From: Acidimicrobiia bacterium
GTDB lineage: Bacteria > Actinomycetota > Acidimicrobiia > Spongiisociales > ZC4RG35
DNA: 26,076 nucleotides
Reading direction: 5' to 3'
Assembly: GCA_035281305.1 (NCBI GenBank)
Contig: DATEEG010000351.1
Span: 1 to 26,076 of the forward strand
Shown: one piece after another, positions 6,357-9,697 of the stretch
How the letters are laid out: each line of letters begins with the position of its first letter
Numbering within the stretch: the first letter of the stretch is position 1
Translations under genes and position numbers: made by a program
The notes under the pieces: generated by a model
What the model saw: only the letters and a program-made list of their open reading frames with translations
Told to the model about the DNA's origin: nothing
The model's database searches: none

Positions 6357-9300
6357 TCAGAGGCGCTGACCGAGGGCGACGGTCGCGGCTGTCAAGGGGT
6401 CCATCTGGCGGCCCGTCACTCGTGCAGCGACAAGTTCGGGATCGGTGACCGCGTCGGCAGTCATCACCAGGAACTCGAAGTACCACTTTGCCGCCGGCCA
6501 GGGCCGGAGGCTCAAGCGGTCACGGGTCGCCTCGGCGGCTCCGAGCGCGATCATGGCCCGCGATGCGTCGGCCTCTTGCATCGAAAGTCCGGCGAGTGCT
6601 TCAAGTGTGTAAACGAGCCCTTCTCGATACGAAATCGTGCGGTGGATTTCGACGGCCAGGCCCAGGGAACTTCGCGCCTGATCAATTGCGCCGGCGGCCA
6701 GGTGGGTGAACCCAAGTTGAGTGTGGGCCATCGCCAGCATCGAACGATTCTCGAGACGTTGGGCGATTTCCAGGCAGTTCCGGTAGTGCCTCGCCGCCTC
6801 TTCTATGTCTCCCGATGAGGCCGCCAGAAGCCCGAGACTGGTGTGCGCCCAGGTCTCCCCCCACTCGGTGCCGATAGCCCTGAACCGCTCCAGCGAGTCG
6901 ATGTACATCTCCCGCAGGTCGGCGGCCGATGCGCCGAAGGCCGGGAGAGTCGCGGCCCGCAGGTACTTGGCCCAGGCCAGGCCTTCCAGGTCGTCGGTAC
7001 CGGAAAGGACTTCTATAGAGCGTTCGAACGCTGCCAACGCGTCAGCGTGGTCGCCCCGCTCAAAGAAAACTCCCCCGGTCAGCCAAGTCAGGCGTCCGAG
7101 GGACACCGCCGGCAGGTTCGGATCGGGTGGACCGGCTTTCCGCATCCACTCCCCCACTTCGGCGACGTGTCCCCGCACCCACACGTAGATCCACAGCGCA
7201 TGGGTGAGCCGGACCATGTTCACGATCTCACCGTTTTCGGCGAAGTGCAGGACCGCCAGGCGCAGGTTCTCCCATTCCAGATCGAGCCGCCGCATCGAGG
7301 CTCCGTGCCCGGCGCCGTTCAAGCCCGGCTCGAGCTCTTCGGCCAGATTCAGAAAATGAAGGGCATGGTGATCCTGGAGCGGCTCGAACTCACCGGCCTC
7401 ACGCAGGCGCTCCAGGCCGTATTCCCGAACCGTCGCCAGCATCCGAAAGCGGGGCTCGCCTTCCGAATCGGACTCGATCCGAAGAAGGCTCTTCTCTACC
7501 AATGACTCGAGCAGCGACATCGTGGACGAGACATCCAGTTGGCCCAGGTCGACCGCCGCCTCCAGGCTCCAGTTCTGGGCCAAAACCGAGAGACGACGGA
7601 AGATCTGCCTTTCGTCGACAGTCAGGAGTTCGTAACTCCAATCGATCGTCGCCCGCAGGGTCCGCTGCCGGGCCGGAAGGTCCTGCGGACCATGACCGAG
7701 GGCATCGAACGATTTGGCTAGCTGGGTCAGCAACGTGGCCGGGGTCAACATCCGGAGCCGTGCGGCCGCCAGTTCGATAGCCAGTGGAAGACCGTCGAGG
7801 CGGCGGACGATGCCGGCGACGTCACCGGCATTCGATACGTTGATGGAGAAGTCGGGACGAACCGACCTGGCTCGCTCGACGAACAAATTGACGGCTGCCG
7901 AGTTCAGGACCGCCTCGAGGCCGTAGGTGTCTACCGAGGGAACGGGCAGCGGAGGCACGAGGTACTCGTGCTCACCGATGACTCGCAATGCGACCCGGCT
8001 GGTCACGAGCATGTTGATTCCGGGGCACCGGGTCAGCAGCCTCGTGAGAGCCGGGGCTCCGGCGACCACCTGTTCGAAGTTGTCGAGGATCAAGAGTGCC
8101 CGCTTGGCGGCGAAATGGTCGGCGACGGCCTCGAAGGAGGAGCGGTTGATCGTGGTGCCTATGGCTTCTGCGATCGCGGTCATCACCTGGTCGGGGTCGC
8201 GGACTCCGGCGAGGCTGACGAAAAGCACCCCGTCGGGGTAGTCCGCCGCGACCTGGGCAGCCACCGCTACTGCCAGACGGGTTTTACCGATTCCACCGGA
8301 GCCGCTGAGGGTGACAAGGCGCACCTCGGGGCGGGAGAGCAGCGCACCGATCTGCGCGATCTCGGGACCGCGCCCGACGAGGGAGGTGAGCTGGGCCGGG
8401 AGGTGGACCTCGGAAGCCTGGCGGGCCCGCGGGACCGGAAATTCCTCAGCCAGGCCGGGAGCCAGTAATTGGTAAAGGTGCTCGGATCGCGAGAGTCCTT
8501 TGAGGGCGAATGCCCCGAGATCGCGCAGGTGCCACTCCTGGCCTGCGATGACGTCAGCGAGAAGGCTGGCGGCCGTCGATGACACGATGATCTGGCCGCC
8601 GTGACCGGAGGCTCCGATGCGGGCGGCGCGGTGGACGTCGAGACCCACATACCCCTCGGGGGTGACGGTGGCTCGACCGGTATGCAGACCGATCCGGGCC
8701 CGGATGCCGGGGCCGGGATCATGGGGTCGATCGAGGTCGCCCCCGCTCAGTGGCTCCAGGGCCATGGTTCGTTGGATCTCAACTGCAGCCCGGGCGGCGT
8801 CGGCCGGTTCGGTGAACACCGAGAAAGTCCCATCACCTTCGGTGTCGACTACCTGGCCGCTGTGCGCGTTCACGGTGGCGCGGATCATCGATCGGTAGGC
8901 GCCCAGGACCGCGGGATACGTCTCGCCCAGCTCTTGGACCAGTCGGGTCGAGTCCTCGATATCGGAGAAGAGGAAAGTCAAGGTTCCGCCCGGCAGCTCG
9001 ACCCGTCGGGGGGACGCATCGAAGTGGTCGGTCATCAACCGGGCCAGGTCGTCGAGGAGCAGCTCGGCCAGCTCTCCAGCCGATTCGAACTGCTTGTAGA
9101 CGACTCCCCGGTCTGCTCGAATCTGATCGAGCAAGATTTCGAGGGCCGGATCCCGCTCGCCGGCCGGTTCCTTGACGTAAATCAAGCGGGGCCGATCTCC
9201 GGCGAGTCTGAACTCATCCTCGATCGCCGAGATCTCCATGTCGGGAGCCGTCAGTCCGTAGCTTTGCCAGTAGATGCCGACGAAGATGTCGCTCTGGGCG

Positions 9301-9569
9301 AGATACGACCGGTAGAGGTCGCGGGGCGGATGGGGACGTGCACCGAGCTCGAACATCACCGGGGCGAGGCGCAGAGTGCGAATGGCCGTCTTGGCTGCCT
9401 CACGCTCGGAGGCAAGCTCACCGATCGTGGAACTGATGAACACGCGCAAGCGCCGCCCGGGGACGAAGTTCTGGACCCCGGCCCCGTTCGGTTCCTCACC
9501 GGCAACGGCGATTCCGGGACCGAGCGGGTCCGGAGATCCTTGCTGGGGGCTGTCTGAGAGTGAGGCCAT
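6357..9569 (-). CDS. DUF4062 - class III adenylate/guanylate cyclase - STAND (NB-ARC-like) ATPase - TPR protein (about 1070 aa)
   Basis: VFISST..FVGIYWQSYG (DUF4062); FLFSDIEDST, EGDG, RIGLHTG, VHRAARI (cyclase); GSGGIGKT, LLILDNFE, GLPLAIELAAAR (STAND); C-terminal helical TPR-like repeats. Confidence 0.9.
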   Translation of the reverse strand: MASLSDSPQQGSPDPLGPGIAVAGEEPNGAGVQNFVPGRRLRVFISSTIGELASEREAAKTAIRTLRLAPVMFELGARPHPPRDLYRSYLAQSDIFVGIYWQSYGLTAPDMEISAIEDEFRLAGDRPRLIYVKEPAGERDPALEILLDQIRADRGVVYKQFESAGELAELLLDDLARLMTDHFDASPRRVELPGGTLTFLFSDIEDSTRLVQELGETYPAVLGAYRSMIRATVNAHSGQVVDTEGDGTFSVFTEPADAARAAVEIQRTMALEPLSGGDLDRPHDPGPGIRARIGLHTGRATVTPEGYVGLDVHRAARIGASGHGGQIIVSSTAASLLADVIAGQEWHLRDLGAFALKGLSRSEHLYQLLAPGLAEEFPVPRARQASEVHLPAQLTSLVGRGPEIAQIGALLSRPEVRLVTLSGSGGIGKTRLAVAVAAQVAADYPDGVLFVSLAGVRDPDQVMTAIAEAIGTTINRSSFEAVADHFAAKRALLILDNFEQVVAGAPALTRLLTRCPGINMLVTSRVALRVIGEHEYLVPPLPVPSVDTYGLEAVLNSAAVNLFVERARSVRPDFSINVSNAGDVAGIVRRLDGLPLAIELAAARLRMLTPATLLTQLAKSFDALGHGPQDLPARQRTLRATIDWSYELLTVDERQIFRRLSVLAQNWSLEAAVDLGQLDVSSTMSLLESLVEKSLLRIESDSEGEPRFRMLATVREYGLERLREAGEFEPLQDHHALHFLNLAEELEPGLNGAGHGASMRRLDLEWENLRLAVLHFAENGEIVNMVRLTHALWIYVWVRGHVAEVGEWMRKAGPPDPNLPAVSLGRLTWLTGGVFFERGDHADALAAFERSIEVLSGTDDLEGLAWAKYLRAATLPAFGASAADLREMYIDSLERFRAIGTEWGETWAHTSLGLLAASSGDIEEAARHYRNCLEIAQRLENRSMLAMAHTQLGFTHLAAGAIDQARSSLGLAVEIHRTISYREGLVYTLEALAGLSMQEADASRAMIALGAAEATRDRLSLRPWPAAKWYFEFLVMTADAVTDPELVAARVTGRQMDPLTAATVALGQRL

Positions 9570-9697
9570 GATCGAATCCAAGACTATCCGACGCCTCTCC
9601 CCAAGCCCCCACGAATTGGATCTCGGGGTGCCTCTGCTAACCCACCCGACCGAGTCTTCGGTGGCGTGGCGGCCGTGTTATCGCAGGGTGAGCGTCC

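Follow-up and report, generated by a model that had tools for sequence, protein, structure and literature searches.

A DUF4062 domain and a class III cyclase homology domain in tandem on an AfsR-like STAND-TPR protein of an uncultured Acidimicrobiia bacterium

RESULTS

Domain architecture of the STAND protein

The protein described here is encoded on a stretch of 26,076 nucleotides (contig DATEEG010000351.1 of assembly GCA_035281305.1; C351 in our numbering), which was analyzed over its full length and is called the window below. It belongs to a metagenome-assembled genome (MAG) of an Acidimicrobiia bacterium, an assembly of 3.07 Mb in 542 contigs that is 87.6% complete. The gene of interest, hereafter the STAND gene, is a single uninterrupted open reading frame (ORF) on the minus strand, window:6357-9569(-); the ORF list and its translation give a product of 1070 aa when counted from the ATG. 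Because an alternative TTG start at 9581, four codons upstream of the ATG, is closer to a GGAGAGG motif at 9594-9600, the start position is ambiguous by 4 residues. The product is 100% identical to the cluster representative P0002, and full-length homologues measure 1014-1107 aa.

Pfam searches of the 1070-aa protein returned, from N to C terminus, a DUF4062 domain, a class III cyclase homology domain (CHD), an NB-ARC-type STAND NTPase, and TPRs. The DUF4062 match (PF13271) covers the full model, positions 1-82, at residues 42-123 (E 2.5e-18; 66.5 bits against a cut-off of 24.7), and the Guanylate_cyc match (PF00211) spans residues 196-368 (E 1.7e-10; 41.3 bits against a cut-off of 21.9). Matches to AAA_22, AAA_16, NB-ARC, and NACHT fall at residues 397-526, and those to TPR_12, TPR_1, TPR_2, and TPR_MalT at residues 827-1006. 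These domain matches are at E-values far beyond chance. The C terminus consists of the TPRs and a 64-residue tail, with no Pfam match to GerE/LuxR or any other helix-turn-helix (HTH) domain. The N terminus is taken up by DUF4062 and the CHD, and no match to Trans_reg_C or BTAD (SARP) was found in the protein. A first-pass annotation had already proposed this domain order with its coordinates, a SAIEDEF motif in DUF4062, and the lack of a C-terminal LuxR HTH; the ORF list and the Pfam matches agree with it on each of these, the motif lying at residues 114-120.

The DUF4062 head

DUF4062 is known from other proteins as a TIR-like NAD+ glycohydrolase domain, "NIR" (bioRxiv 10.64898/2026.05.01.722283, 10.64898/2026.09.04.749371, and 10.64898/2026.06.25.731849). 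Key residues have been reported as the catalytic E97 in KpSwz (Swarozyc), E1008 in human TEP1, and F11 and E87-Y88 in Evangelion Eva01 (bioRxiv 10.64898/2026.05.01.722283 and 10.64898/2026.06.25.731849), and the catalytic glutamate of PsAvs2 is E108, in the study that renamed the domain NIR (Le Mouellic et al., bioRxiv 10.64898/2026.09.04.749371). In the STAND protein, the TIR-like domain and its C-terminal helix take up residues 36-186, window:9012-9464(-), as delimited by PF13271, the structure model, and profile matches.

An AlphaFold model of residues 36-186, built with 68 homologues, has a pLDDT of 87.4 and a beta-alpha repeat topology. Its top structural matches among 48,161 PDB representatives (VIA-align) were the CMP N-glycosidase MilB (Z 12.8), RCL/DNPH1 (Z 12.4), and nucleoside deoxyribosyltransferases. 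TIR domains were also matched, including RPS4 (Z 12.2), TIR-STING (Z 12.2), SARM1 (Z 10.9), and ThsB (Z 10.7), together with TIR-1 and MAL, although Z values near 10 are also reached by flavodoxin-like folds generally. The DUF4062 domain of PsAvs2 gives the same set of structural matches (Le Mouellic et al., bioRxiv 10.64898/2026.09.04.749371). At the level of sequence, a profile of the DUF4062 family matched the solved KpSwz NADase chain (E 3.9e-7) and the TIR-like domain of TEP1 (E 0.009) among PDB sequences; a single-sequence search of the same region found nothing there, and both proteins were reached only with the family profile. The TIR/nucleoside deoxyribosyltransferase-like fold suggested for this domain in the first-pass annotation is thus borne out by the model, by matches at Z 10.7-12.8, and by the KpSwz profile match.

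Three signature motifs of DUF4062 are present and are conserved over 106 family members: RVF(I/V)SST.GEL..ER, FVGIYWQSYG, and S-x-(I/L)-E-x-E-(Y/L/F). The last of these, S114-A-I-E117-D-E119-F120, is the putative catalytic motif, assigned from motif register and family conservation, window:9210-9230(-). Among the 97 of these 106 members that have a residue at the motif, position 114 is S in 90, position 117 is E in 82 and D in 9, and position 119 is E in 83 and D in 13, that is, E or D in 96/97; position 120 is Y, L, W, or F across the family. Numbering of the KpSwz chain was fixed from the published D16, R18, and D71, which gave an offset of 13, and E97 is Ala in the deposited mutant chain. 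With this offset, the KpSwz sequence S-F-T-E-K-E97-F is in register with the motif of the STAND protein, as is E87-Y88 of Eva01. Because of this register, we regard E119 as the likely catalytic residue of the DUF4062 head. The printed HMMER alignment to the KpSwz E97A chain is shifted by two residues and places the E97 position on E117 instead of E119, probably because the mutant chain lacks the glutamate. The first-pass annotation had likewise picked the second glutamate of SAIEDEF; the motif register favors that choice, whereas the HMMER alignment points to the first, and the decision between E119 and E117 is made from the motif alone. With a mean pairwise identity of 0.60, DUF4062 is the most conserved region in the family. 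Its site looks intact, and NADase activity is predicted.

The cyclase head

The CHD occupies residues 196-368, window:8466-8984(-), as defined by PF00211 and by its match to and superposition on Ma1120 of M. avium, the closest solved sequence (E 1.6e-18). A two-domain model of DUF4062 and the CHD reached a pLDDT of 89.4 and a pTM of 0.63, and its CHD superposes on Ma1120 with a TM-score of 0.93 and an rmsd of ~2 Å. Foldseek searches with the two-domain model returned cyclases only, and DUF4062 was therefore modeled and searched alone, as described above.

Using Ma1120 as the reference, we compared the active-site positions over 105 aligned family members. Both metal-binding aspartates are kept, since D203 and D246 align with the Ma1120 pair; the first is D in 103/105 members, and the second is D in 63/105 and E in 42/105. 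At the substrate specificity positions, K101 of Ma1120 is replaced by D242 (D in 99/105, E in 6/105) and D157 by G306 (G in 79, N in 16, and S in 7 of 105). The transition-state Asn-Arg pair is incomplete. R317, which corresponds to R168 of Ma1120, is present and is R in 105/105, and the canonical Asn position, occupied by A164 in Ma1120, holds a histidine, H313, in all 105. The missing asparagine does not rule out activity, because Ma1120 is an active adenylyl cyclase with Ala at this position and loses activity when mutated to A164N (PMC4215837), and Rv1900c is active with His there (PMC4886424).

Adenylyl cyclases carry the specificity pair Lys/Asp, and guanylyl cyclases carry Glu together with Cys, Ser, Thr, His, Ala, or Gly (PMC4215837). 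The D242/G306 pair is not adenylyl cyclase-like, and it would be guanylyl cyclase-like only if Asp can stand for Glu. With Asp/Gly in the place of Lys/Asp, the pair is nearer to the guanylyl cyclase combination of Glu and a small residue, and the product is therefore probably not cAMP-specific. Judged by its residues, the CHD is probably a selected and active cyclase with a specificity pair unlike that of adenylyl cyclases. Its mean pairwise identity in the family is 0.52. The His variant also occurs in paralogues from the same genome that lack DUF4062 (L004 and L006), and the canonical Asn is found in the paralogues L005, L007, and L009, so that the CHDs of the source genome are a mixture of the two types.

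The STAND-TPR chassis

The STAND NTPase core, recognized by AAA_22, AAA_16, NB-ARC, and NACHT, extends over residues 397-560, window:7890-8381(-). It contains a Walker A motif (GSGGIGKT, residues 423-430, window:8280-8303(-)) and a Walker B motif (LILDNFE, residues 493-499, window:8073-8093(-)), both of which are near-invariant in the family as GxGGxGKT and hhhhDNFE. The helical arm and winged-helix region of the module follows at residues 561-800, window:7170-7889(-), and is delimited by the AfsR alignment and by PF25872 (HTH_77), which represents the winged helix of the module and appears in the precomputed annotation of the protein and its homologues. The TPR sensor region covers residues 827-1006, window:6552-7091(-), and is followed by the tail.

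The best solved relative of the NTPase-TPR part is AfsR (PDB 8k60; E 1.6e-12 over residues 390-713), with the alignment of the NOD extending to ~714. The same part gave NCBIfam matches to HaaT (E 1.2e-28) and AfsR (E 3.9e-24; 84.7 bits against a cut-off of 1430), both far under the equivalog cut-offs. On this sequence evidence, the chassis is AfsR-like and belongs to the actinobacterial NB-ARC-TPR lineage. Mean pairwise identity is 0.54 for the NTPase and 0.39 for the TPRs, the least conserved region of the family, and both heads (0.60 and 0.52) are thus conserved on a par with the NTPase. The helix between DUF4062 and the CHD is also well conserved, its GELAELLxDDLA sequence being near-invariant.

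DUF4062-CHD on transmembrane receptor cyclases

DUF4062 and a CHD are also joined on a second kind of protein that has no STAND module. The representative P0129 (1216 aa; L023:730-4380) consists of DUF4062, a CHD, one predicted transmembrane (TM) helix (~377-402), YVTN-type beta-propeller repeats, and SBP_bac_5, and is encoded by a normal gene amid housekeeping genes on a 48.7-kb contig. In proteins of this type, DUF4062 and the CHD are on the cytoplasmic side of the membrane, and the propeller and the SBP_bac_5 solute-binding domain are extracellular. Ten clusters share this layout (P0129 and the P0266-P0275 group); in pattern searches, one TM helix was found in 10/10, VFVSS in 9/10, and SGLEDE(Y/F) in 9/10. 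The parent family is a large one, made up of CHD-TM-propeller-SBP receptor cyclases of Actinomycetota of ~1035-1050 aa, and some of these sister receptors carry an N-terminal SARP DNA-binding domain in the place of DUF4062 (P0350, P0365, and P0382).

In a tree of CHDs, those of the DUF4062-bearing receptors cluster among the receptor family (SH-aLRT 98), apart from the DUF4062-CHD-STAND family. Forcing their CHDs together with those of the STAND family costs 45 log-likelihood units (approximately unbiased test, p = 0.026), a soft test because the group was named after the tree had been seen. Between the two chassis, DUF4062 is ~60% identical and the CHD ~45%. These comparisons suggest that DUF4062 came to lie immediately ahead of a CHD on at least two, apparently independent, occasions, and such repeated fusion argues for functional coupling of the two domains. 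A DUF4062-CHD pair behind an extracellular sensor would also fit ordinary signal-transduction logic, as opposed to intracellular phage sensing.

Distribution and phylogeny

The four-part architecture is not confined to the window. In a set of 5.8 billion proteins clustered at 90%, more than 100 of the best 120 matches were full-length proteins of the same four parts (1010-1107 aa, 43-57% identity). Among 1.84 billion representatives clustered at 50%, ~40 had DUF4062 and a CHD in one stretch, many of them fragments, and DUF4062-STAND-TPR proteins without a CHD (~870-900 aa) accounted for more than 100 listed representatives, with DUF4062 domains 57-65% identical to that of the STAND gene. Close homologues carry the NCBI label Acidimicrobiia bacterium. 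The DUF4062-CHD-STAND fusion was present in 4/201 sampled Acidimicrobiia species genomes, all of them in the family of the window, and in 3/301 genomes of a phylum sample, two of which belong to a family in another class. Four genomes of the phylum sample (G201, G283, G217, and G362) are flagged as unpublished and were used only in this tally.

The source genome itself holds two full DUF4062-CHD-STAND copies, the second of which is on contig C80 at 47% identity, as well as a third DUF4062 in a fragment (C136) and at least six CHD-STAND-TPR paralogues without DUF4062. For a genome of 3 Mb, this makes ~ten cyclase-STAND-TPR paralogues or fragments (C80, C136, C391, C276, C353, C164, C104, C87, and C4), two or three of them with DUF4062. 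The first-pass annotation had called cyclase-STAND-TPR and DUF4062-STAND-TPR proteins familiar, and both do occur in the same genome or class; it had left open how rare their combination is, and the count of architectures shows that it is not unique but a diversified family of more than 100 clusters at 90% identity.

In the STAND-TPR tree, the fusion family forms one large clade (SH-aLRT 95), with DUF4062-only relatives basal to it and CHD-only members scattered inside. One row of this tree, L005 from the source genome, is mislabeled as two-headed, as its stop-to-stop frame takes in upstream sequence. The tandem architecture, though uncommon, is recurrent and well established, with N-terminal modules that are labile in evolution.

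Two observations that had seemed to bear on distribution were set aside. Short two-headed forms of ~540 aa were not counted as a separate architecture; the one examined, P0137, covers the front half of a full-length gene that is split or frameshifted, and its 3.8-kb contig carries a family member divided into overlapping ORFs of 538 aa and 508 aa, which reflects a frameshift or sequencing error and not a short isoform. Likewise, the MarR and dynamin genes of G499, a genome of the same genus, lie ~230 bp apart with no STAND gene between them, but the gap contains a run of 100 N (L024:2313-2412; G499:C157) exactly at the expected site, preceded by ~30 bp in which homology to the STAND gene at its 3' end is still seen, so that absence of the gene is unproven. 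A search of this whole genome, which is 86% complete, found no DUF4062-CHD copy.

Genomic context

G+C content is even over the window, at 63-67%, and neither tRNAs nor Rfam matches were found in it. According to Pfam, the neighbors of the STAND gene include a Ser/Thr kinase, SatD, an ADP-ribosylglycohydrolase-like gene, a DAG kinase, pirin, and a MarR gene convergent with the STAND gene, as well as two dynamin-like GTPases, a PD-(D/E)XK protein, VanW, pyruvate kinase, and cytochrome c maturation genes. Gene order is preserved in a related MAG, GCA_035525055.1 (locus L011), where the STAND ortholog is 86% identical. The flanking genes are mostly 77-92% identical between the two, apart from the second dynamin gene at 54%, and a short Clp_N fragment stands at 80%; as 86% falls within this range, the STAND gene has diverged about as fast as its neighbors. 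A scan upstream of the STAND gene found no sigma-70-like promoter, a result that is uninformative for a high-G+C actinobacterium.

Some details of this region deserve mention in their own right. The two dynamin-like GTPase genes, window:11335-12612(-) and window:10248-11603(-), diverge faster than the genes around them (54% and 77% versus mostly 80-92%). A 168-aa ORF with no Pfam family, window:9698-10204(-), is encoded on the minus strand like the STAND gene, 128 bp upstream of it, and is 78% identical over 131 aa in L011, where its counterpart was called as two small pieces. Between this small ORF and the STAND gene, L011 carries an inserted ECF-type sigma factor and a glyoxalase gene (L011:8096-9569 versus window:9570-10247), an indel in otherwise collinear sequence. 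The ADP-ribosylglycohydrolase-family gene, window:2086-3057(-), lies 3.3 kb from the STAND gene and is kept in L011 at 91% identity.

To these two loci we added others, for a context sample of 16 consisting of the window, five homologues (44-86% identity), and ten loci from species genomes. Every examined locus had a distinct gene neighborhood, save that of the near-identical ortholog. Neighbors at the homologue loci include genes for an E1 dehydrogenase, methylmalonyl-CoA mutase, acyl-CoA dehydrogenase, DNA polymerase III tau, ribonucleotide reductase, BipA, and peptidases. On the contig of P0016, a 57% identical homologue, a 340-aa cNMP_binding gene is divergently adjacent, with a cytosine/purine permease, a PNP_UDP_1 phosphorylase, and an IS110 transposase nearby. 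One homologue is followed by PspC and LiaF-like genes, and another adjoins a SARP-BTAD-AAA_16 gene.

No complete defense system was recognized at the 16 loci by PADLOC or by Pfam on the neighbors. The PADLOC matches among 73 neighbors were mad3 (E 3.5e-27), mad8, AriA, and LmuB, and only mad8 was traced to its gene, which proved to be DNA polymerase III tau and was discarded as a defense gene. Because ABC_tran and AAA_21 proteins are among the neighbors, the AriA and LmuB matches are probably generic ATPase matches. In PADLOC-DB v2, no Avs or other STAND defense model matched the 1070-aa protein at E up to 0.1, and its sole match above 20 bits was to PycC (27 bits, on the CHD); the related DUF4062-STAND proteins at L013-L015 had no PADLOC Avs match either. 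The Avs-type antiphage framing of the first-pass annotation therefore finds no support in the context of the 16 loci or in the PADLOC models, and the chassis is AfsR-like.

DISCUSSION

A putative two-output STAND switch

We favor, at about an even chance, the reading that the STAND protein is a cytoplasmic, NLR-like STAND switch for the control of stress or growth with two enzymatic outputs, NAD+ cleavage and a cyclic nucleotide. In such a switch, the TPR region would bind a ligand, and the NB-ARC module, whose Walker motifs are intact, would undergo the nucleotide-dependent opening and oligomerization typical of its family. Oligomerization would gather the N-terminal heads, and, from what is known of these families, the CHDs could then form the head-to-tail dimers that complete class III active sites, and the TIR-like domains could assemble as needed for catalysis. 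NAD+ cleavage and cyclic nucleotide synthesis would then fire together. We read this as stress or growth control because the family is chromosomal, has multiple paralogues, and lies among housekeeping genes, and because DUF4062 is also found on a TM receptor cyclase. A role in abortive infection could be part of its function, but not as a mobile, dedicated defense-island gene.

A broader proposal, which we put forward as doubtful but worth stating, is that DUF4062-CHD is a recurrently evolved two-enzyme signaling unit of Actinomycetota, in which a TIR-like NADase and a His-variant cyclase would be activated jointly, by either a cytoplasmic STAND-TPR sensor or a TM propeller/solute-binding receptor, to cleave NAD+ and to make a cyclic nucleotide other than cAMP. 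Recognition of DUF4062/NIR domains as NADases dates only from 2026 and has so far concerned antiphage effectors and the TEP1 vault enzyme. In the present case, an "immune" NADase domain with an intact motif stands in series with a cyclase, on an AfsR-type chassis and at ordinary chromosomal positions of uncultured Acidimicrobiia. If the proposal is true, NIR/TIR-like NADases would take part in ordinary bacterial signaling such as growth arrest, dormancy, and stress, beyond antiviral immunity, and one protein would emit two nucleotide signals. Should both heads be active, the protein would be a single-chain switch coupling NAD+ consumption to cyclic nucleotide production and would thereby link two nucleotide-signaling systems; should only one be, it would still offer a natural system for how STAND oligomerization activates TIR-like and cyclase domains.

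Several observations weigh against a stress or growth switch with two outputs. The fusion is patchy among close relatives, being present in 1/4 species of one genus and 2/3 of another in genomes that are 96-99% complete, its genomic context is different for each distant homologue, and at least 13 changes of N-terminal architecture are found on the STAND-TPR tree; such patchiness, shifting context, and change of architecture are also typical of immune and conflict genes. Single-gene Avs-type systems, moreover, need no defense neighbors. As for the cyclase output, the canonical Lys, Asp, and Asn are all absent from the CHD, and Glu stands at the second metal site in 40% of members, so that the domain could be weak, specialized, or noncatalytic. 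The relative arrangement of DUF4062 and the CHD is also not confidently predicted by the two-domain model, given its pTM of 0.63.

The most serious competitor, which we hold to be unlikely, is a dedicated single-gene Avs/bacterial-NLR antiphage sensor, in which the TPRs would see a phage protein, the STAND module would oligomerize, the NIR head would deplete NAD+ in abortive infection, and the cyclase would add a second alarm. Its effector-STAND-repeat layout is that of PsAvs2, an NIR-STAND-TPR protein that defends E. coli via NAD+ depletion, and NIR genes overall are enriched near defense genes, at 20% versus 3.9% expected (bioRxiv 10.64898/2026.09.04.749371). The patchiness in close relatives, the several paralogues, the differing sites in distant relatives, and the highly variable sensor would also suit such a role. 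Set against this, PADLOC matched the protein with no Avs or STAND defense model, PycC at 27 bits being the only model above 20 bits, and 0/16 loci had a recognizable defense system, integrase, or tRNA nearby. The uniform base composition of the window, an ortholog that evolves at a housekeeping pace, and the AfsR-like chassis point the same way, and the same DUF4062 subtype on a TM receptor with extracellular solute-binding domains is not phage-sensor logic.

The two other alternatives would each leave a single enzyme. N-terminal domains gate the activity of the CHD dimer in other class III cyclases, and DUF4062 might do so here by binding or turning over NAD+, ADP-ribose, or another nucleotide and acting through the connecting helix, with a cyclic nucleotide as the only output. 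That DUF4062 lies directly upstream of a CHD on two chassis with similar short spacing, and that the interdomain helix is so well conserved, would fit this idea, but we consider it improbable: the catalytic-type Glu motif is kept in ~96/97 members, which argues for catalysis over mere binding, and DUF4062-STAND-TPR proteins that have no CHD are far more numerous (>100 representatives), so the domain works without a cyclase. Conversely, the CHD might be a pseudo-cyclase that serves as a dimerization scaffold to pair the TIR-like domains or STAND arms, leaving the NADase as sole enzyme. Replacement of the canonical Lys, Asp, and Asn (by D242, G306, and H313), Glu as the second metal ligand in 42/105 members, and a modest Pfam score of 41 bits are what such a scaffold would predict. 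However, these replacements are fixed (H313 and R317 in 105/105, D242 in 99/105), the first metal Asp is kept in 103/105, and mycobacterial cyclases without the Asn are active (PMC4215837 and PMC4886424). The same VHRAAR variant also occurs in the receptor-type relatives, whose build is that of ordinary signaling cyclases. We give the pseudo-cyclase reading the least credence of those considered.

Comparison with known systems

PsAvs2 of Pseudomonas chlororaphis resembles the STAND protein in having an N-terminal DUF4062 with a catalytic Glu, a STAND NTPase, and C-terminal TPRs in one polypeptide (bioRxiv 10.64898/2026.09.04.749371). The STAND protein differs in its extra class III cyclase between NADase and NTPase, its AfsR-like NTPase-TPR part, and its lack of an Avs model match and of a defense-island context. 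More generally, it shares the tripartite effector-STAND-repeat layout of Avs proteins, but by the PADLOC models it does not fall in an Avs clade, and no association with defense islands or mobile elements was seen at the 16 loci. The DUF4062 NADases KpSwz, Eva01, and TEP1 have the motifs VF.SST..(D/E)L..ER, (R/S)YG, and S..E.E[FY] in common with the STAND protein, and the helix that follows its DUF4062 is comparable in position to the KpSwz stalk. Their partner domains are different, being a helical stalk and AUX region in Swarozyc and Evangelion (bioRxiv 10.64898/2026.05.01.722283 and 10.64898/2026.06.25.731849) and TROVE-NACHT-WD40 in TEP1.

AfsR of Streptomyces coelicolor (SARP-NOD-TPR; PDB 8k60 and 8jke) provides the closest solved NOD-TPR module, and both proteins have an LDN-type Walker B. 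The output of AfsR is an N-terminal SARP DNA-binding domain; in its place, the STAND protein has two enzyme domains and no DNA-binding domain, so that the module is homologous to that of AfsR-type regulators while Pfam finds no SARP domain. Proteins of the M. tuberculosis Rv0386 type, CHD-ATPase(-TPR)(-LuxR), likewise place a class III CHD ahead of a STAND-type ATPase, but the STAND protein has an extra N-terminal DUF4062 and, by Pfam, none of their C-terminal LuxR/GerE HTH. The specificity pairs also differ among these cyclases, with Gln/Asn in Rv0386, Lys/Asp in Ma1120, and Asp/Gly in the STAND protein. Rv1900c shares with it a His at the Asn position (PMC4886424).

Pycsar and Thoeris/TIR-STING combine a cyclase and a TIR-fold NAD+-processing enzyme in one signaling logic, as the STAND protein may, and a weak PycC match of 27 bits was found, a similarity at the general level of the CHD fold. 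There, the enzyme that makes the messenger is separate from the effector and a sensor domain links the two, whereas the STAND protein has both enzymes on one chain, in which no messenger-binding domain was seen. The DUF4062-bearing receptor cyclases have the same DUF4062 subtype (~60% identity) directly upstream of a His-variant CHD, but with a TM extracellular sensor, no STAND NTPase, and a CHD of a different clade.

The main texts of the 2026 DUF4062 preprints mention neither the tandem nor a cyclase, and one of these preprints has a supplementary figure with unnamed "auxiliary enzymatic domains," among which the tandem may be included. NIR-STAND-TPR and CHD-STAND-TPR are both known kinds of protein, and what appears to be new is the tandem of the two heads. 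Also new here is the fusion of DUF4062 in front of the CHD in a family of TM receptor cyclases without a STAND module.

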